From a virus (Duplodnaviria; Heunggongvirae; Uroviricota; Caudoviricetes), in IMG/VR virus record IMGVR_UViG_3300032167_007646: 64,000 nucleotides of DNA. One strand, written 5' to 3'. Below, piece by piece: positions 6,076 through 44,956 of the stretch. Position numbers and translations under genes: made by a program. The notes below the pieces were generated by a model that saw only the letters and a list, made by a program, of their open reading frames with translations, did not search any database and was not told the DNA's origin. The stretch's first letter is position 1. Each line of letters opens with the position of its first letter.

Positions 6076-6104
6076 TTGACAAAACAACTTATTTATGTTA
6101 TAAT
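6076..6104 (+). promoter_or_regulatory. Consensus sigmaA promoter for 6132-6461
   Basis: TTGACA (6076-6081), 17 nt, TATAAT (6099-6104), extended -10 TG. Confidence 0.85.
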
Positions 6105-30060: not shown

Positions 30061-30867
30061 TTACTTATTTATAATTGTAATAGGAGATTTTTCTACTCCA
30101 TCTTTTGATACCTGCCAATAATTACAAAGATTATTTTTATGTGCTCTATCAAACATATCTTCTGTAGCTGCAGTTAAAAATACAAAAGCAGTTAAACCTG
30201 GTCTTTCTCCATTTTCACTTGTAGTAAGATGATATACCTTATGCCAACCTGCTTCAATATACTTTTTAGCAATAGCATTTCTCAAAACTATGGGAAGTTC
30301 ACTATTTACTTGTGCCTCAAACCATTCAAACATAGGTTCATTTTCCTTAAGTTCCTTATCAATCTCATCTACATACTTATCAACCTTTGAAAGTGTTTTC
30401 AGTTCAATCAATTCTTTTGGACTAATAGCCATTTTTACATCTTCTCCTTTATTTAATACTTCTTTTAATTCCTCTTTTAATTCCATTTCTATTGATTTTC
30501 TTTTCCATTCTAATACTGTTTCATAGGAAGAAATCATATGATAGTCAAACTCTTTGTAATCTTCTGATTCCAACCACTTAACATATGAGTCTTTTGTCAA
30601 GAAAACAAAATGACTAACTCTTTCACCATCTTGTTCCATACCTACAAAAGCAACTACATACCAACCTGCATCAATATACTTTGCTGCAATTTCCTGACAA
30701 AACTCTTCAGAAAGTTCTACTTCTGTAAAAACACTATGCCAAGCAAACCATCTATGCTCATTTTGTTCTAACAAGTCTTTATTTATTAAACTAAGCCAAT
30801 AATCAAACTTTTCTTCTTTACTTATCTCTATTTTTCCTAATTCATCAGGACCATAAGCTCTTGCCAT
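30061..30867 (-). CDS. Paralog family C, two tandem domains
   Basis: KYIDAGW...FVFLT and KYIEAGW...TSENGERPGLTAFVFLT; internal MAISP start at 30432. Confidence 0.8.
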   Translation of the reverse strand: MARAYGPDELGKIEISKEEKFDYWLSLINKDLLEQNEHRWFAWHSVFTEVELSEEFCQEIAAKYIDAGWYVVAFVGMEQDGERVSHFVFLTKDSYVKWLESEDYKEFDYHMISSYETVLEWKRKSIEMELKEELKEVLNKGEDVKMAISPKELIELKTLSKVDKYVDEIDKELKENEPMFEWFEAQVNSELPIVLRNAIAKKYIEAGWHKVYHLTTSENGERPGLTAFVFLTAATEDMFDRAHKNNLCNYWQVSKDGVEKSPITIINK

Positions 30868-30868
30868 T

Positions 30869-31297
30869 TTATTTCACCTTACCCCTCAATACAGTATAAT
30901 CAAAATCACTATTTGGGAAACAACAAGGCATAGAATACTTAAAATATTCTGAACCAAATATATGATAACTTTCTATATTTGTCATTGTTTCAAAAAACTT
31001 AGGTATATCTTTTGCTTCCAAAAATGCAAAATATGTTACTTTTTCCCCTAAATCTTTATTCTCACTACTTGTTTGATGTACTACAACTTCCCAACCCGCC
31101 TTAATATATCTCTTTGCAATTTCATCTCTTATATCTGAGTTTAATTCATTATCAAAAATATAATCACGCCAAGAATAAAGACCTTTCTTACCACATAACA
31201 AATGCTTATCTATAATATCTTCCATTCTTTCAGCAAACTTTTCAATTTCCTTTTGATACATATATTCAACAGTTAATTCCTTAGGACTTATTGCCAT
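30869..31297 (-). CDS. Paralog family C
   Basis: MAISPKE...RYIKAGW...TSSEN. Confidence 0.8.
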   Translation of the reverse strand: MAISPKELTVEYMYQKEIEKFAERMEDIIDKHLLCGKKGLYSWRDYIFDNELNSDIRDEIAKRYIKAGWEVVVHQTSSENKDLGEKVTYFAFLEAKDIPKFFETMTNIESYHIFGSEYFKYSMPCCFPNSDFDYTVLRGKVK

Positions 31298-31709
31298 TTA
31301 AATCTCCCCATTTCTTTTCTTCATAAGAACTTTTAATTTTATCTTTAGTTATTACATAATATATTTTTCTCTTATCTAATGTATCCACATATTCCTTAAA
31401 AAAACTATCAATAGTATGTTCTGTCAAAAATGCAAAATATGTAATACCAGGTCTTTCACCATTTTCTGTTGATGTTTGATGAACAACCATATCCCAACCT
31501 GCATCAATATATTCTTTTGCTACAGCATTTCTTAAATCTTCTCGATATTCATTAGGAAGTATTACATCAAACCATTCACTATTTCTACATTCACCCGCAA
31601 ATCGTAATTTTTCATCTATTTTCTCAACAATTTCTTTCACTGCCTTTTTATCAAAACCTACTACATCCTTTGGACTTAATGCCATATTTATACCCCTCTC
31701 TTTACTCAT
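31281..31709 (-). CDS. Paralog family C
   Basis: MALSPKD (true start about 31685)...EYIDAGW...TSTENGERPGITYFAFLT. Confidence 0.8.
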   Translation of the reverse strand: MSKERGINMALSPKDVVGFDKKAVKEIVEKIDEKLRFAGECRNSEWFDVILPNEYREDLRNAVAKEYIDAGWDMVVHQTSTENGERPGITYFAFLTEHTIDSFFKEYVDTLDKRKIYYVITKDKIKSSYEEKKWGDLNGNKS

Positions 31710-32076
31710 TTACTCTTATCTGCTCTATTGAAGGCATATTTTTTGAATTACACCATTTTGGTTTTTCACTATGTTTATATCCATTTATTGAAGAAACATC
31801 ATTACCCACAAAGAAAACACCAATATTATATTCCTCTATAGATAACCAAACAGTATTATTTGTCATAATATTTCTTAAAATAACATGTCCACTTGTCTTT
31901 ATTTCAAGTTCAAATTCTTCACCATCACAAGCAACAATATCAACAGTACCTTTTCTTCTTAAATCAAAATAATCTTGATTACCTTCAGTAGTGTGAAAAA
32001 TTATTCCACCATAATGTAATTCTTTTATACCATTATTATATAATTCTTTTAGACTTAAACATACTTTTTTATCCAT
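31702..32076 (-). CDS. Hypothetical protein
   Basis: 124 aa, coupled to neighbours. Confidence 0.7.
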   Translation of the reverse strand: MDKKVCLSLKELYNNGIKELHYGGIIFHTTEGNQDYFDLRRKGTVDIVACDGEEFELEIKTSGHVILRNIMTNNTVWLSIEEYNIGVFFVGNDVSSINGYKHSEKPKWCNSKNMPSIEQIRVNE

Positions 32077-32257
32077 TATTTATAACCTCAAATCTTAAAA
32101 TATAACCTTCATTAAAATTCTGTTCAAACTTCCTTAAAGTAAACTCATCAAATTCCTTTTGTGTCATATGTATAAAAGGATTATTCTTTAATACTTTTTT
32201 TGTATCATGTATTTTTTCAACTTCTGGTTCTGAAAAATGAACATATTTAACTTTCAT
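32069..32257 (-). CDS. Small hypothetical protein
   Basis: 62 aa, AGGAG RBS, first gene after a sigmaA promoter. Confidence 0.65.
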   Translation of the reverse strand: MKVKYVHFSEPEVEKIHDTKKVLKNNPFIHMTQKEFDEFTLRKFEQNFNEGYILRFEVINNG

Positions 32258-32285
32258 ATCATTAACACTCCTTTATCTTAAATTA

Positions 32286-32314
32286 AGTATAACACAATTA
32301 TTACTTTTTGTCAA
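32286..32314 (-). promoter_or_regulatory. sigmaA promoter
   Basis: TTGACA, 17 nt, TGnTATACT. Confidence 0.8.
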
Positions 32315-32332
32315 TACTTTTTTTATAAAAAA

Positions 32333-32358
32333 TTAGAGATTGTATATGCAATCTCTAA
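32333..32358 (-). terminator. Intrinsic terminator
   Basis: ttagagattg/caatctctaa. Confidence 0.75.
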
Positions 32359-32379
32359 ATAAATTCAATCTTTTAATAT

Positions 32380-32742
32380 TTAAGGAATTCTTTTCTTTTT
32401 TACTACATCATATTTTAACTCTTGTTTATTTATAACATCTCTTACAAAATTATGACTTCCCAACTTAGTACAAAATACAAATTCTGTAGTATTCTCTACT
32501 TTGCCAAAATTTATTCTATAATATACAGTATCCCATCCTGCTTCTATATATTCTTCTGCAATATCTTTACAAATCTTATCACTTAAACCACCCTCTAAAA
32601 TGACTGTTACATAATCTGTAACGTCACCTTTGGTTAGTTCAAGCATAATCTTATCTATTTCTACTACTTTATTACTTACTATTTGTCTTAAACATTTATT
32701 TTCTTCTCTTAACTTATAAAATTCTTTTGGACTTACAGCCAT
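32380..32742 (-). CDS. Paralog family C
   Basis: MAVSPKE...EYIEAGW...FVFCT. Confidence 0.8.
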   Translation of the reverse strand: MAVSPKEFYKLREENKCLRQIVSNKVVEIDKIMLELTKGDVTDYVTVILEGGLSDKICKDIAEEYIEAGWDTVYYRINFGKVENTTEFVFCTKLGSHNFVRDVINKQELKYDVVKKKRIP

Positions 32743-32744
32743 AG

Positions 32745-33098
32745 TTAATCCTCCTTCTCAACTACCAAATAATCTCTTAATTCTGATTTACCTTTCGCAT
32801 AATCTTTATCTTTTCTTTTACAAAGAATAAATTTTGTAGATTTACTATTTTTAAAATCTAAAATATGAGAACAAACCATAGGCCAACCCTCATCTACATA
32901 TTCTTGACTTATCAATTCTCTTAATTCTTTACTTAATATTCCTGGTAAACAAACGACTACAAAACTACCTTTTGCTTTATCACCAACTGCTAATTTACGA
33001 AGTTTCTTATCCATTTCTTCTACTTTTTCTTTTACTATATCTTCTAATAAACATTGTCTATTTATTTCATTATAAAATTCTATTGGACTTAATGCCAT
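32745..33098 (-). CDS. Paralog family C
   Basis: MALSPIE...EYVDEGW. Confidence 0.78.
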   Translation of the reverse strand: MALSPIEFYNEINRQCLLEDIVKEKVEEMDKKLRKLAVGDKAKGSFVVVCLPGILSKELRELISQEYVDEGWPMVCSHILDFKNSKSTKFILCKRKDKDYAKGKSELRDYLVVEKED

Positions 33099-33100
33099 TT

Positions 33101-33760
33101 TTATCTATCCCCTTTAACTTTAAAACATTTTTCAATATTTTTTAATTCACCTACTACTAACAATGTTCTATCTACATCAAAAACAGTATTAGGTAATATA
33201 TTACAATTAAAAACTTTACCCATCTTAAATGCTAAAATATTTATACTATACTTTCTTCTTATATCTACTTCCGCAACAGTTTTTCCTATCCAAGAGTCAG
33301 GAATTGTAACTTCAAAAACACCAAAATTATCATCTATTTCCATATAATCCAATATATGGTCAGCAGTATATCTAATAGCAGCCCATTCTGCCACTTGTTC
33401 CTCTGGATAAACAACTTCATCTGCACCATTTCTTAATAAAAATTTTCTTTGAACTCCACGCTCTGCTCTTGCTACTACATACTGAGCACCTAATTCTTTT
33501 AATAAAGAAGTTGTTTCTAGTGATGCTTGAAAATCTTTTGCAATAGTTACAAAACAAACATCAAAATCACTTACACCTAATGTTCTTAAAAAATCTTCAT
33601 TTGTACTATCACCTATTTGAGCATTTGCAACTATTGATAACACACTATTGATTCTATCTTCTGAATTATCTATTGCCATAACTTCATGACCTAGTTCATA
33701 CATCTTTTCTGCAATATGCTTACCAAATCTACCCAATCCTACTATTAAAATTGATTTCAT
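33101..33760 (-). CDS. trkA: TrkA/KtrA K+ uptake regulatory subunit (RCK_N + RCK_C)
   Basis: VGLGRFG, GDSTNEDFL, LKELGA, GADEVVYPE. Confidence 0.95.
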   Translation of the reverse strand: MKSILIVGLGRFGKHIAEKMYELGHEVMAIDNSEDRINSVLSIVANAQIGDSTNEDFLRTLGVSDFDVCFVTIAKDFQASLETTSLLKELGAQYVVARAERGVQRKFLLRNGADEVVYPEEQVAEWAAIRYTADHILDYMEIDDNFGVFEVTIPDSWIGKTVAEVDIRRKYSINILAFKMGKVFNCNILPNTVFDVDRTLLVVGELKNIEKCFKVKGDR

Positions 33761-33771
33761 AATATACCACC

Positions 33772-35100
33772 TTACCCCACATTTACTTTTTCCATTGGTT
33801 TTTTAGATATATTTTTAACTTTTGGACTCAATGTTGCAAAAATTAAAGTTAAACAACCAACTCTACCAAAAAACATTAAAAACATTAGAATACACTTTGA
33901 TATAAAACCTAAACTTGATGTTATACCTAATGATAATCCTACTGTTCCTATTGCTGAAGCAGTTTCAAATAAACAAGTTAATAAATCCAAACCCTCTATC
34001 TTACTTATTATACAACCACTTACTATAAATAACATTATATACATTAATAATATACTACTTGCATTTTTCATTACACTATTATCTACACGCCTACCAAAAC
34101 ATTCTACATCTTCTTTCTTACGAAATGAAGAAAAAGCACTTAATATAAGTATTGCTATTGTAGTAGTTTTTAATCCACCCGCAGTAGAACCTGGTGAACC
34201 ACCTATTAACATTAAACATATTGTTAATAATTTACCTACCTCACTCATACTATTAAAATCTAATGAATTAAATCCTGCAGTTCTTGTTGTTACTGACTGA
34301 AATAAAGAACCTAATATTCTTTCACTACCTTGTAATTCATTAAATTCAAAAAAGTAAAAATATACTGCTGGAATAATTATTAAAAATACACTTGTAAATA
34401 ATACAATTTTACTTTGTAAACTATATCTTTTCAATCTAAAACCAAATTGCTTTATATCACTCCATACAGTAAATCCAAGACCACCCACTATTATTAAAAA
34501 CATTATCACAATATTTAAAATAATATTACTACTATACCCTGTCAATGAACAAAATTTATTCTCTACACTACCTAATAAATCAAACCCTGCATTACAAAAA
34601 GCGCTAATTGAATGAAATACAGATTTCCATATTCCCAGTACACCAAAATCTGTATAAAATACTGAAAACATAAATAATGCACCAAGTAATTCAATAATTA
34701 AAGTAATCTTTAATATAAATAATGTTAATTTTACTATACCACCAACTTGATGTGCTGAAATAGAATCTTGCATTAAACTTCTTTGTTGAATACCTACCTT
34801 TTTACCAGCAAATATCAATCCTAATAAAGATATTGTTACAACACCTAATCCACCTATTTGTATTAACAATAAAATTAAAAATTGTCCAAAATAAGACCAA
34901 TAACTTGCTGTATCAAATACAACTAAACCTGTAACACAAGTTGCAGAAATAGAAGTAAACAAACAATCTATATAAGAAGTCCACACACCATTTACATTAG
35001 ATATAGGTAACATTAATAAAATACTTCCAATTATTATTACACTCAAAAAACCTAATATAATCTGTTGAGAATAACTTAAATTTTTTATCTTTTTATTCAT
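33772..35100 (-). CDS. trkH: TrkH/KtrB K+ uptake membrane subunit
   Basis: Four MPM repeats with filter glycines: TCVTGL, FCNAGF, TRTAGF, IGTVGLS. Confidence 0.95.
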   Translation of the reverse strand: MNKKIKNLSYSQQIILGFLSVIIIGSILLMLPISNVNGVWTSYIDCLFTSISATCVTGLVVFDTASYWSYFGQFLILLLIQIGGLGVVTISLLGLIFAGKKVGIQQRSLMQDSISAHQVGGIVKLTLFILKITLIIELLGALFMFSVFYTDFGVLGIWKSVFHSISAFCNAGFDLLGSVENKFCSLTGYSSNIILNIVIMFLIIVGGLGFTVWSDIKQFGFRLKRYSLQSKIVLFTSVFLIIIPAVYFYFFEFNELQGSERILGSLFQSVTTRTAGFNSLDFNSMSEVGKLLTICLMLIGGSPGSTAGGLKTTTIAILILSAFSSFRKKEDVECFGRRVDNSVMKNASSILLMYIMLFIVSGCIISKIEGLDLLTCLFETASAIGTVGLSLGITSSLGFISKCILMFLMFFGRVGCLTLIFATLSPKVKNISKKPMEKVNVG

Positions 35101-35108
35101 TATAAAAC

Positions 35109-35612
35109 CTACTTTATCTTTTTATCTACAACAACTATTGTATCATTATGCCAACCACCATGAGCAACCAACAATATTTCTTGTATTTCAAATCCATATT
35201 TCTTACCTATACCACCACTATTCCAGCTACAAGTAATAACATAGCCTCCTGGTTTTACAATACGACCAATCTCAGCCTTTTGTTTTGACCAATATGAACT
35301 CTGTGTTGTTTGATAATTTACACTCATACCCAAATTCTTATAACATTCAGAGATTTGTCTGGGCGAATAAGGAGCATCATATAATACAGTATCAACAGAC
35401 TCATCCTCAAACATCTTTAAGAAATCAGTAGCATCCATATGATATGTAGTATCATATTGAGGGTCTAAATCATTTGTTATCGTCGCAAATTTATTACTAT
35501 TTGCAAAAGGGTCTATAATAACCCCATTTGCATATTTATTTATCAAATCACCTATTGCCTTTATACTAAAAGTATTACTATTTGGCATAGACCAAACTCT
35601 GTTTATTTCCAT
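35109..35612 (-). CDS. Small phage-type DNA adenine methyltransferase
   Basis: IIDPFAN (motif I), VLYDAPYSPRQ (motif IV variant), WNSGGIG, HGGWHND. Confidence 0.75.
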   Translation of the reverse strand: MEINRVWSMPNSNTFSIKAIGDLINKYANGVIIDPFANSNKFATITNDLDPQYDTTYHMDATDFLKMFEDESVDTVLYDAPYSPRQISECYKNLGMSVNYQTTQSSYWSKQKAEIGRIVKPGGYVITCSWNSGGIGKKYGFEIQEILLVAHGGWHNDTIVVVDKKIK

Positions 35613-35624
35613 AATTAAATCACC

Positions 35625-35987
35625 TTATCTATTCTTAACTGTTGTAACTGAAATATAATTACTACAATCAGGATTTTCAAGCCACTTCTTACGAGTTTCA
35701 TTTGTTAAAAATACATATTTTACTATCCAATTATATGTTTCAGCCTGTGTTTTCTCAATCTGATAAGCCACTTCAGCCCAACCATTTTGTAAATATTTAT
35801 AACAAACTTCTTCACAAACCTTATTCAAAGGTTCTTCTGTATCAAAATAAGTAATTCTACAAATATCTAATAATTTATATGTAGCACGCTCAATTATTTT
35901 TGCATCTAATTTCTCAACTATTTCATCTACTGTTTTCTGTAATAAAGCCTTTTGATGTTCTTCAAATCCACTTGGACTAATTGCCAT
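35625..35987 (-). CDS. Paralog family C
   Basis: MAISPSG...KYLQNGW...YVFLT. Confidence 0.78.
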   Translation of the reverse strand: MAISPSGFEEHQKALLQKTVDEIVEKLDAKIIERATYKLLDICRITYFDTEEPLNKVCEEVCYKYLQNGWAEVAYQIEKTQAETYNWIVKYVFLTNETRKKWLENPDCSNYISVTTVKNR

Positions 35988-36002
35988 TTTTATAACCCCC
36001 TA

Positions 36003-36767
36003 CTAATTTTTTGTAATTGTACTCTTAATAATATCTATTAAATCATCTGTTAATTTACTTGCTCTAAATCTATATACTGTACTATTATAGAAATATCCTT
36101 TTTCTTCATAGACAAATATATCTTTTTCTTCACTCACCATTACATTCTGCATATTAACAGATTTATTTAACTTTATAATATCCTTACTCATATAAAGTTC
36201 ACGACAAAGATTAGGTATATTATAATCTTTTACATTTAATTCCCAATTACCTGTTTCACTACCACCCACAGTTTCAGGAACAACTATATCATAATAATCT
36301 ACAATATCACTAACACACTTTTCTTGATATATTTCAACTCTAAAACAGCCACTGTGATATGTCATATCTACAGAACATTTTTCACTTAATTCTTTAATTA
36401 AATTTTTATCTAAACTTGCAGTAACTTTTTCAATAAATTCATCTATTCTATATTTACTACCTTTTAGTCTTAACTTTAACTGAATATCAGTTAAAATATT
36501 ATTTATCTGAAATAACTTATCATTCTCTATTTCTATTCTCTTTAATATAGAGTTCTTTTCAAACAAATAATCCTTATACTCTCTATAAATACTTGCTGTT
36601 TCACTATCCAAATCTATAAATGTATATGGAGTACCTTTTCTTACACTATTTATTTTTCCATCTTCACATAAAACACTATAATAATCAGGTTTTTCACTAA
36701 TAATCATACCTACTTCACCTGTACGAAATTTAAATATATCTCCAATACTTGCTTTATTCATTTTCAC
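36003..36767 (-). CDS. Hypothetical protein, paralog family A
   Basis: ASIGDIFKFRTGEVGMI...YYSVLCEDG, then coiled coil. Confidence 0.78.
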   Translation of the reverse strand: MKMNKASIGDIFKFRTGEVGMIISEKPDYYSVLCEDGKINSVRKGTPYTFIDLDSETASIYREYKDYLFEKNSILKRIEIENDKLFQINNILTDIQLKLRLKGSKYRIDEFIEKVTASLDKNLIKELSEKCSVDMTYHSGCFRVEIYQEKCVSDIVDYYDIVVPETVGGSETGNWELNVKDYNIPNLCRELYMSKDIIKLNKSVNMQNVMVSEEKDIFVYEEKGYFYNSTVYRFRASKLTDDLIDIIKSTITKN

Positions 36768-36790
36768 ACCACCTAAATTATTATAAAAAT

Positions 36791-36819
36791 ATTATACCAT
36801 AACTATTCCTATATGTCAA
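36791..36819 (-). promoter_or_regulatory. Consensus sigmaA promoter
   Basis: TTGACA, 17 nt, TGnTATAAT. Confidence 0.85.
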
Positions 36820-36846
36820 TACACACAAAATAAAAATATAATAAAA

Positions 36847-36871
36847 GTGCTGATACTCAAAGTATCAGCAC
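36847..36871 (-). terminator. Intrinsic terminator
   Basis: gtgctgatact/agtatcagcac. Confidence 0.8.
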
Positions 36872-36914
36872 CATTTTCAATTACCTGTTTCATCTTTTCT
36901 CATATTAAAACCCC

Positions 36915-37262
36915 TTATCTAACACAATGCCATTCACTAGTAATATGAGATTTTTCCCAAATTTCATAGGTTTCTTCTGTTAAAAATACAAATGTTGTAA
37001 GACCTTGTCTCTCACCATGTTCACCTGAAGTTCTATGATATATCTTTTTCCAACCCTCTTTTACATAAGCCTTTGAAACCTCATTACGTAATTCTTCAGA
37101 ATACTCACCCTCAACAATTACCTGAACCCAAGAGTACATCTGATTTCCAGCAGTCTTAATAAGTGCATCATCTATTTGTGTAATTACACTATCAAGTCTA
37201 CCCATATCAGAAGCCACCTTAATTCTTTGATATTCACTAGGTCCAATCATACCAACTACCAC
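36915..37262 (-). CDS. Paralog family C
   Basis: MIGPSE...AYVKEGW...TSGEHGERQGLTTFVFLT. Confidence 0.8.
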   Translation of the reverse strand: MVVGMIGPSEYQRIKVASDMGRLDSVITQIDDALIKTAGNQMYSWVQVIVEGEYSEELRNEVSKAYVKEGWKKIYHRTSGEHGERQGLTTFVFLTEETYEIWEKSHITSEWHCVR

Positions 37263-37306: not shown

Positions 37307-37335
37307 ATTATAACAAAAAAAGTCTCTTTTGTCAA
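37307..37335 (-). promoter_or_regulatory. Consensus sigmaA promoter whose -35 lies in the loop of a terminator hairpin
   Basis: TTGACA (37330-37335), 17 nt, TGnTATAAT (37307-37312). Confidence 0.8.
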
Positions 37336-37344
37336 GAGACTTTT
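37318..37344 (-). terminator. Terminator after the 37352 methyltransferase
   Basis: aaaagtctc/gagactttt. Confidence 0.75.
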
Positions 37345-38112: not shown

Positions 38113-38439
38113 TTACATTCCACTAAGACCTATAAGAGCAAGAATACTTGCACCACTTATAGCAATAACAAGAAGAGCTCCTAATATACCACAAATCTGT
38201 AAAGCAAAGAATACCCAAGGAAGCCAAGTAGGACAATCATCTGCTTTTAAAGGCTGACCATTTTTATCTGTCATAGTATTTTTAGCATGCTTATACATAT
38301 CAATAATAGTACCTACTCCACAGCAACCACCTGTTAAGAGCCAAATGATACCTGTACCAATTTTACCTAAATAAAATCTATGAATACCCCAGCATCCTAA
38401 AAATCCATTTAACAATGTTGAAACCAATTTACTTTTCAT
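38113..38439 (-). CDS. TM2/NINE domain membrane protein
   Basis: FLGCWGIHRFYLGKIGTGIIWLLTGG. Confidence 0.88.
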   Translation of the reverse strand: MKSKLVSTLLNGFLGCWGIHRFYLGKIGTGIIWLLTGGCCGVGTIIDMYKHAKNTMTDKNGQPLKADDCPTWLPWVFFALQICGILGALLVIAISGASILALIGLSGM

Positions 38440-38831: not shown

Positions 38832-40163
38832 TTATAAAATAACTTCTTTTATAGTCATAAAATACCCCAATTCATTTATTTTATAAACTTCACAAACAAG
38901 TTCAATTTCCCCATTTGGTCCTACTTTATTTACAAAATGCTCTATCATATTATTCTCATCTGTTTCTCTATCTATATAACAAAGAACTGAAATAAATGTA
39001 AATTCTTCATTCTCACCTTTTAATGAAATATAAGGTTCATCTTCTCCTAAATTCATAGTTGCAATAGTACCTGATACTTTTATATTTTTATTTAAGTATT
39101 TTTCTTTTGTTTGTACTAAATCTAATTGTAAATCATTCTTTAACTCATCAAAAGAAACTTCTAATTCATACTCTGTACTACCCATTACTTCTGAAAAATA
39201 TTTAACATATTCTTCTGATGGACCCTCATCCACTACTTCTTCTAACTTAAAATATATTTCATTTATATCTAAATAATAATTACTACTATCTATATCTGAT
39301 ATATAACAAACCATACTTATTTCTTCTTTTTTATTATACTTTTTTAATTCTTCAATTTGCTTATTTCTTTCTTCTTCATCACTATCTAAATAACAAATAA
39401 TTTTTTTACTGTTATTTCTATCTAACGAAATTAGTGTTACATAAGGCTTATCTACATCTAACTTTAATTCACCTAAACCACCTTTTACTCTTACATCCTT
39501 ACCTAAATACTCTATTATTGCCTCTTCTTTACCCTCATTTAACTTTGCAATTAAATCATCCACAGAAACCTCTGTATCAAAATTTGTTATATGTTCTGAA
39601 TTATCATTATATTCTTTTGTGTCATCAAAATCTTTTGGACTTTCAAAATCAATATCATCATCATAACCGTCATTATCTAAATCACTATAATTATCTTCTT
39701 TTTTCTGTTTTTCTTCTTTTTCTTTCTTTTCCCCTCTATCTTCTAAACCATAATCTATTTTTTCTTCCACTACTTCAATGTCTTGAATTTTTATCTCATC
39801 TTCAACTTGATTTATTTTAAATATTGTAAGACCTACTGTAGCACCAACTATTATCATAACAATACATAAAATTAAACATATTATACAAGCAACTGCATCA
39901 ATAATCCAGGGTATATGATTCTTTACATCTTCAACTAAATTATTACCATTTTTATCAGTCATCTTATTACGACAAATATTTATATTATCTACTAACGTTC
40001 CTATACCAAAACAACCATGAGTTAATAACCATAAAATACCTGTTCCTATTTTACCTAAATAAAATCTATGAATACCAAAACCACCTAAAAAGAAACAAAG
40101 TAAAAAAGTAACTAATTTACTTTTCATACAATCAGTCCTCCTTAAATTTACAAAATTACCCAT
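38832..40163 (-). CDS. TM2 domain protein with acidic linker and two tRNA_anti-like OB-fold repeats
   Basis: FLGGFGIHRFYLGKIGTG (true start about 40127); repeats EVSVDDLI...YLGKDVRVKG and EVSFDELK...YLNKNIKVSG. Confidence 0.8.
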   Translation of the reverse strand: MGNFVNLRRTDCMKSKLVTFLLCFFLGGFGIHRFYLGKIGTGILWLLTHGCFGIGTLVDNINICRNKMTDKNGNNLVEDVKNHIPWIIDAVACIICLILCIVMIIVGATVGLTIFKINQVEDEIKIQDIEVVEEKIDYGLEDRGEKKEKEEKQKKEDNYSDLDNDGYDDDIDFESPKDFDDTKEYNDNSEHITNFDTEVSVDDLIAKLNEGKEEAIIEYLGKDVRVKGGLGELKLDVDKPYVTLISLDRNNSKKIICYLDSDEEERNKQIEELKKYNKKEEISMVCYISDIDSSNYYLDINEIYFKLEEVVDEGPSEEYVKYFSEVMGSTEYELEVSFDELKNDLQLDLVQTKEKYLNKNIKVSGTIATMNLGEDEPYISLKGENEEFTFISVLCYIDRETDENNMIEHFVNKVGPNGEIELVCEVYKINELGYFMTIKEVIL

Positions 40164-44927: not shown

Positions 44928-44956
44928 ATTATATCATATTTAAAAATGTTTGTCAA
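44928..44956 (-). promoter_or_regulatory. Consensus sigmaA promoter for the ABC-PARG-FAD operon
   Basis: TTGACA, 17 nt, TGnTATAAT. Confidence 0.85.

Follow-up and report, generated by a model that had tools for sequence, protein, structure and literature searches.

The paralog array

The DNA analysed here, a 64,000-nucleotide stretch of the Caudoviricetes record IMGVR_UViG_3300032167_007646 from IMG/VR (hereafter the window; 27% G+C, with nearly all genes on the minus strand), carries seven minus-strand genes between 30061 and 37250 that together encode eight homologous alpha/beta domains, which we call family C. An earlier reading made by a model from the DNA letters (the sequence-only reading) had proposed that a domain of about 120 amino acids (aa) occurs here in eight copies in seven genes, and this is borne out by the open reading frames (ORFs), by an alignment of the eight domains in which P, Y, G and W residues are invariant, and by leave-one-out hidden Markov models (HMMs). 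The latter recovered the omitted domain at E-values of 6.5e-16 to 1.7e-29, with all other six-frame ORFs of the window at E > 0.1, so that the profile similarity, the lack of which was to have overturned the proposal, is significant. BLASTP aligned 22 of the 28 domain pairs (E 1e-20 to 2.3), and an HMM search for a ninth copy in the window, to which our count of eight refers, found none.

We label the genes A to G from low to high coordinates; gene A carries two domains, A-N and A-C, and the other genes one each. Gene G (36915-37250; 111 aa; HMM E 2e-36) and gene C (31281-31685; 134 aa) encode the canonical form of a hairpin described below (TSGEHGERQGLT and TSTENGERPGIT, respectively). The hairpin loop is derived in gene F (35625-35987; 120 aa; leave-one-out E 6.5e-16), gene E (32745-33098; 117 aa; 3.8e-16) and gene D (32380-32742; 120 aa; 2.2e-24), and it is partly kept, with a three-residue insertion, in gene B (30869-31297; 142 aa; 1.6e-23). 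A Shine-Dalgarno sequence lies 6-13 nucleotides (nt) upstream of the start of each of the seven genes. We moved two starts on the basis of Shine-Dalgarno spacing and ortholog lengths: that of gene G from 37262 to 37250, where AGGTGG lies 8-13 nt upstream of the ATG and the ortholog cluster P0034 is likewise 111 aa long, and that of gene C from 31709 to 31685, which is preceded by the Shine-Dalgarno sequence GAGAGGGG and has orthologs of 134-135 aa.

Gene A (30061-30867; 268 aa) gave two HMM domains, the derived A-N (about 30472-30867) fused to the canonical A-C (30061-30432). A-C has kept a start of its own, ATGGCTATTAGTCC, which is preceded at 11 nt by an AGGAG Shine-Dalgarno sequence within the 268-aa ORF (30405-30468), and we therefore consider gene A to be a read-through fusion of two adjacent genes. 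In the sister contig L039 and in cluster P0007, A-C is a stand-alone gene of 123 aa. It may also be translated separately from inside gene A, as its retained start signals suggest. A pseudo-dimer of A-N and A-C was considered and rejected: in the predicted model the linker is disordered, with a predicted local distance difference test score (pLDDT) below 50, and the two domains are not confidently packed (predicted template modelling score, pTM, 0.53).

The motifs named in the sequence-only reading were recovered as well. An MA[ILV]SP start opens six domains, the TS.E(N/H)GE loop is seen in the four domains A-C, B, C and G, and strands resembling F[AV]FLT, said to end most copies, are found in all of them. 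The conservation noticed in the DNA of the start region corresponds to a six-copy family of direct repeats, composed of the Shine-Dalgarno sequence and ATGGC..AGTCC. The serine of this start motif is encoded by AGT in 6/6 copies, compared with 42% of the serine codons of the window.

A family restricted to phages

An exhaustive HMMER search of 1.84 billion cluster representatives returned 252 relatives (clusters at 50% identity) with E ≤ 0.001, of which 52 had E ≤ 1e-10. A word-indexed search with the eight domains had given just 32 clusters, mainly orthologs from sister phages, and a second indexed search with a broader profile 68. Every cluster named by its source is a 'hypothetical protein', and many members lie on phage contigs of 50-290 kb. 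The ESM Atlas clusters most similar by features or shape are 72-100% viral. Among 185,579 reference prokaryote species the canonical motif was found once, on a 10-kb contig of a metagenome-assembled genome (MAG), with a profile built from, and so biased towards, members with the canonical loop; among 50,697 deposited phage records there was one match, an unannotated faecal contig.

Searches of Pfam-A, PHROGs v4, NCBIfam 20 and PADLOC 2.0 with the window proteins gave no E-value below 0.03, a value reached by a weak PHROG match of one window paralog only to an McrBC inhibitor. When 35 diverse members were compared with the curated libraries, no library family was shared by more than one of them (best E 0.002-0.008), and the best match of an hmmsearch against PDB sequences (E 0.018) was an unrelated periplasmic binding protein. 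The statement of the sequence-only reading that no family could be recognised thus stands for the curated libraries; it does not extend to profile searches of metagenomic data, where relatives exist in the hundreds, all of them unnamed. We conclude that family C is a real, unannotated and phage-restricted domain family.

In about 20 distinct loci of other phages the gene is single-copy. Contig L037 has two adjacent tandem copies, and cluster P0057 is a tandem two-domain protein whose domains are sisters in the family tree; two-domain forms thus arose at least twice independently, in gene A and in P0057.

Three members of the family are of separate note. P0097 lies on a 148-kb contig (L038; NCBI JAWWAS010000001.1) that was deposited as part of a Nitrosopumilaceae archaeon MAG; among its neighbours are Thg1, NT5C and YqeY, along with a faint Gp23 match, and the contig looks viral rather than cellular. 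P0149 (231 aa, on a 2-kb Logan contig) is fused to an N-terminal GNAT acetyltransferase domain (Pfam E 1e-8), the only fusion in a Pfam run on ten fused or extended members; observed a single time, it may be an artefact of gene calling. An ESM Atlas search with the C-terminal extension of P0088 gave no match.

Conserved core and variable hairpin

In the AlphaFold model of the gene C product (mean pLDDT 76; 87-92 in the core blocks), a long N-terminal helix is followed by a strand and a second helix, then by a beta-hairpin, and finally by a third helix and short strands. Among the distant members, many measure just 85-95 aa and end right after the hairpin, which indicates that the last helix and strands are an extension of the window lineage and some others. 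The predicted core of the domain is thus about 85 aa, made up of the N-terminal helix, apparently capped by an S-P-x-E sequence, then a strand, a second helix with Y-x-x-[AG]-G-W at its end, and the beta-hairpin; to this core the window copies add about 30 aa. The nearest relatives are unnamed ESM Atlas and metagenomic clusters (for instance P0035, P0045 and P0082), which have the same domain (HMM E 1e-5 to 1e-30), with structural template modelling (TM) scores of 0.61/0.80 and 0.58/0.71 for unnamed viral clusters. Like the window copies, they have a helix ending in Y-x-x-A-G-W and the hairpin SSENGERPG; unlike them, they are nearly always single-copy, and many, at 85-95 aa, are without the C-terminal helix and strand.

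Across 192 distant members, conservation is strongest at Y60 (96%), G64 (99%) and W65 (97%), followed by P5 (88%) and V68 (84%), and ranges from 55 to 80% per position in the hairpin, H-x-T-S-S-E-N-G-E-R-P-G-L-T. All eight window domains keep the structural positions. The canonical hairpin is intact in A-C, C and G and replaced in A-N, D, E and F, with B as the partial case described above. The single-copy members of other phages are closest to A-C, G or C (35-55% identity), so that these three copies appear nearest to the ancestral state. In the 14 sequences of the F clade, conservation is lowest in the loop, with a mean majority frequency of 0.58 compared with 0.81-0.87 in the flanking elements. 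The window proteins have isoelectric points (pI) of 4.7-6.6 and net charges of -0.4 to -14; the median pI of the family is 5.4.

The check by AlphaFold and Foldseek that the sequence-only reading had suggested yielded no convincing fold match to any described family. Foldseek searches of PDB and BFVD yielded no match with E ≤ 0.001, and in two AlphaFold DB libraries the best E-value was 0.019. An exhaustive search with VIA-align peaked at Z 5.9 (the C-terminal domain of KCTD7), within the background stated for that tool (Z < 6), as were the next matches at Z 3.5-4.9 to Alba-, R3H- and IF3-C-like proteins, Rep/relaxase domains and palm-like domains. The only matches with a TM score above 0.5 were unnamed viral clusters of the same family. 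With its strand-helix-strand-strand-helix-strand order, the long form corresponds to a generic two-layer alpha/beta sandwich, and the predicted fold is uninformative on function.

The domain was also compared with several described classes. Of class I S-adenosylmethionine (SAM) methyltransferases (RlmF, RlmJ and METTL16), only the last ~80 residues of the enzyme align with it (TM 0.33-0.42, E ≥ 0.02); the domain is only 85-120 aa long and is without a glycine-rich or (D/N)PPY motif, and the match to the C-terminal part of RlmF and RlmJ is explained by a common beta-alpha-beta-beta arrangement. The 2H phosphoesterases (LigT, Acb1-like) have two H-x-T/S motifs in two symmetric lobes, compared with one H-x-T-S per domain here, whose histidine occurs in 67% of distant members and is absent from 4/8 window domains; no 2H protein was among the fold matches listed. 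The pI range of the window proteins falls short of the extreme acidity of DNA-mimic anti-restriction proteins (Ocr, ArdA, Arn), and the acidity of the proteins does not fit the basic binding surface of Alba, R3H or IF3-C domains. Finally, we had presumed a likeness between the family hairpin and the C-terminal hairpin of Ugi, which we dropped as not confirmed: Ugi chains were absent both from the results of the PDB profile search (E ≤ 10) and from the 50 Foldseek matches listed.

Selection and gain and loss of copies

The gene-wide ratio of nonsynonymous to synonymous substitution rates (dN/dS), calculated between orthologs of the window and of sister contigs, ranged over the paralogs from 0.05 to 0.43, with gene C the highest (0.43); the values for genes F, E, B and D were 0.13-0.16, 0.09-0.15, 0.08-0.12 and 0.05-0.07, respectively. 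Twelve flanking control genes gave 0.00-0.31. These low values show that each copy is a maintained gene under purifying selection and, being in the range of the controls, they provide no gene-wide sign of ongoing diversification; the proposal that the paralogs are diversifying is thus not supported. The paralogs are 24-41% identical and scattered through a poorly resolved family tree (156 rows, 88/153 branches open) rather than forming a single clade. The duplications are consequently old, and the poor resolution of the tree leaves their timing relative to other phage lineages uncertain.

Sister phages that are 87-94% identical to the window in DNA carry between three and six domains in the interval from TrkA to an 89-aa gene. 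The window and L027 have six (E, D, C, B, A-N and A-C), L029 has five, without C, and L039 has three (E, B and a single-domain A-C), with D and C absent; in L004, C is absent and B and the two-domain A are present. These differences in copy number, found between sister phages with 87-91% DNA identity, indicate that individual copies are dispensable. Two of the insertions or deletions break exactly in the conserved start motif ATGGC..AGTCC. In L039, the region upstream of A is joined to the start of A-C, with BLAST segments that overlap by 8 nt. In L029, L004 and L039, the ATG of B is the exact point at which homology with the window sets in again, and it is preceded in these contigs by a Shine-Dalgarno context resembling that upstream of gene C in the window.

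Further differences were seen in and around the array. Next to gene C, a 124-aa gene (31702-32076, minus strand) shares homology with the sister contigs only as far as 31799, inside the gene, and its 3' part was therefore exchanged along with paralog C; the sisters have a 95-96-aa gene and a 42-aa ORF in its place. Sister contigs (L029 13740-14672; L039 2140-3072) also carry a 310-aa gene with no Pfam match, located between D (or E) and the promoter of a 62-aa gene; it is absent from the window, where the matching site is at about 32337-32380. A cassette encoding a 167-aa DNA methylase, TrkH and TrkA (33101-35612, minus strand) lies inside the array of the window and is absent from L004, in which F, E and D are contiguous; its breakpoints are just past the stop of F and just ahead of the start of E.

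Transcription units

Three sigma-A-type promoters with an extended -10 box and four hairpin terminators, all on the minus strand, delimit three units. The first consists of a promoter (37335-37307; TTGACA, a 17-nt spacer and TG-n-TATAAT, 12/12 matches to the consensus), gene G alone and a terminator with a 12-bp stem followed by a T run (36872-36846). The second runs from a promoter at 36819-36791 (12/12, with TG) through a 254-aa gene, F, the 167-aa methylase, TrkH, TrkA, E and D to a hairpin at 32358-32333. The third starts from a promoter at 32314-32286 (11/12, with TG) and comprises the 62-aa gene, the 124-aa gene, C, B, A and four small genes ahead of a hairpin at 28953-28930. The sequence-only reading had the region driven by strong sigma-A promoters at 32286, 36791 and 37307, and these match the consensus at 11-12 of 12 positions; as drivers of the array they need qualifying, since the one at 32286 first serves two unrelated small genes and the one at 36791 first serves the 254-aa gene. 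Its broader picture of a divergent paralog array under early promoters likewise stands as far as a divergent, phage-restricted array with host-type sigma-A promoters is concerned, and is not supported at the gene-wide level in the part that had the copies diversifying.

About ten intergenic sigma-A promoters of the same quality (11-12 of 12, most with TG; for example at 44956, 27928, 17848 and 7988) were seen along the minus strand, together with one plus-strand consensus promoter at 6076. As near-perfect promoters occur along the whole 64 kb, none of them is special to the array, and the window looks dependent on host RNA polymerase. At 37318-37344, a hairpin with an 11-bp stem that scored as a terminator in both orientations coincides in part with the -35 box of the gene G promoter; it may end transcription of an upstream methylase gene right at the next promoter.

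Possible functions

We propose that family C is a small binding protein with an accessory role, rather than an enzyme or a core replication component, and would put the probability of this reading at about 0.4. It draws on the combination of near-invariant structural residues with an exposed loop that is swapped in paralogs under purifying selection, and on the mild acidity of the proteins, the lack of any enzyme-family signal (no match to a catalytic family in Pfam, PHROGs, NCBIfam, PADLOC or PDB profile searches), the restriction to phages and the free gain and loss of copies. Because the structural residues are kept at 96-99% and the hairpin at 55-80%, with wholesale replacement in four domains, an interface fits better than an active site. 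The family C copies would then be soluble, non-enzymatic binding proteins, made early from host sigma-A promoters. Their exposed HxTSSENGERPGLT hairpin, as the most conserved part across distant phages, would be the probable contact site for a conserved partner, retained in three copies (A-C, C and G) and rebuilt in the other five (A-N, B, D, E and F), presumably to contact different partners. The copies would be accessory, held by purifying selection when present, and whole units would be gained or lost between sister phages via recombination at the conserved start motif. The most likely role would be an accessory one in host takeover or counter-defence, and an anti-defence or host-takeover function is plausible.

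We also considered a bolder version of this proposal, in which family C is a phage-specific scaffold whose conserved hairpin neutralises a conserved bacterial component, and which radiated in this lineage into eight modules whose remodelled loops target different proteins of host defence or physiology. The set would be reshuffled between strains by recombination of whole units at the 14-nt start motif, and would be the phage equivalent of multigene families known from poxviruses and African swine fever virus; we regard this version as unlikely.

Four observations weigh against the binding-protein reading. Gene-wide dN/dS values reveal no positive selection. Sigma-A promoters occur throughout the window, and the label 'early' is thus generic. 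The replication genes found next to family members in other phages would fit an accessory role in DNA metabolism equally well. Lastly, a catalytic site could be built in canonical members from H70, T72, E75, E78 and R79.

The third of these points leads to the main rival, in which family C serves the replication, repair or modification of phage DNA, either as an accessory subunit or as a regulator. Its canonical hairpin would dock on a conserved DNA-metabolism protein of phage or host, such as a clamp, helicase or methylase, and the extra copies would serve different enzymes of a very large genome. In L001 a DinG-like helicase and PolB are found within about 3 kb of the gene, which adjoins the sliding clamp in L002 and L013 (with a 7-nt overlap in L002) and has as neighbours an NAD ligase in L003, a DNA methylase in L007, a DHH/RecJ-like phosphoesterase in L009 and a Suv3-like helicase in L017, and the window copies flank two DNA methyltransferases. 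These annotations, which also include a DUF2828/DUF7788 protein, took in only the largest neighbouring ORFs, however, and the largest ORFs of early regions are often replication genes in any case. BLAST clustering of the neighbouring genes across 21 loci found no recurring partner family, three further large contigs have only small unknown genes around the family member, and copies are freely lost between sister phages, which would be unusual for parts of a replisome. On balance we hold this explanation to be less probable than an accessory binding protein.

It is improbable, in our view, that the family consists of small nucleic-acid-binding regulators of phage or host translation or transcription, built on a sandwich of the Alba, R3H or IF3-C type. 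Alba-like, R3H, Jag/KhpB, ribosomal S24e and IF3-C domains did appear as weak structural neighbours, but their Z-scores (3.5-4.9) belong to the background of the tool, the proteins are acidic to neutral, and the conserved columns show no evident basic patch. Least probable of all is a small enzyme that uses the H-x-T-S ... E-N-G-E-R loop, for example a dimeric half-size phosphoesterase degrading a signalling nucleotide, with the loop-less paralogs as inactive decoys: H70, T72, S73, E75, E78 and R79 are present in canonical members and the repeated origin of two-domain forms (gene A and P0057) hints at a dimeric working unit, but the histidine and threonine occur in just 67-69% of distant members, compared with 96-99% for the structural Y, G and W, no fold match of meaningful score links the domain to 2H, HUH or other hydrolases, and the two domains of gene A are not confidently packed in the model.

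Comparison with known systems

Like the 'genomic accordions' of the poxvirus type, the array consists of small accessory paralogs in tandem whose copy number varies among very close relatives. It differs from them in that the copies are ancient (24-41% identity) rather than recent and near-identical, in that each is under purifying and not positive selection at the gene-wide level, and in that variation occurs by gain and loss of old units at a short conserved start motif.

The host-takeover module of Bacillus phage SPO1 contains many small early genes behind strong sigma-A promoters. The window resembles it in its short, terminator-closed operons of small proteins behind consensus host-type promoters, in a large phage with a likely Firmicute host. 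The SPO1 host-takeover genes are not known to be paralogs of one another, and no sequence relationship to family C was seen, PHROGs having given no match.

Multi-copy paralogs in a very large phage are also found in phiKZ, whose head and inner-body proteins gp92-97, 153, 162 and 163 belong to PF12699, and several single copies of which tolerate disruption, suggesting redundancy (bioRxiv 10.1101/2025.11.23.690004). The phiKZ proteins are virion components with a Pfam family, whereas no Pfam family matches family C, whose genes belong to accessory operons under sigma-A promoters rather than to a structural module.

What is new here is an undescribed phage-specific family and a unit-wise route for gaining and losing its copies, in a lineage with an unusually large set that varies among close relatives. 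Large phages hold many genes of unknown function, and family C is a compact and tractable example: its core is predicted with confidence, its conserved loop is sharply delimited, its natural variants number in the hundreds, and one genome offers a series from canonical to rebuilt loops. If the hairpin is an interface, the family would represent a new class of phage effectors with a ready-made specificity series; if it is instead a replisome accessory factor, it would be an unrecognised conserved component of the replication modules of large phages. The breakpoints at the start motif suggest a simple way for phages to add or drop whole paralog genes with their neighbours undamaged.

Neighbouring genes

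Other genes of the window encode RtcB, a 750-aa protein matching phrog_21327, an ABC transporter, two DNA methyltransferases and TrkH/TrkA; the array sits among accessory genes, namely the two methyltransferases and TrkH/TrkA. Just upstream of it lies a second, smaller paralog set, a pair of minus-strand genes (38113-38439 and 38832-40163) that share the N-terminal TM2-type membrane motif FLGxxGIHRFYLGKIGTGIxWLLT. The products of this pair at the sister locus carry PF05154 (TM2), and the longer one also has a tRNA_anti-like domain.

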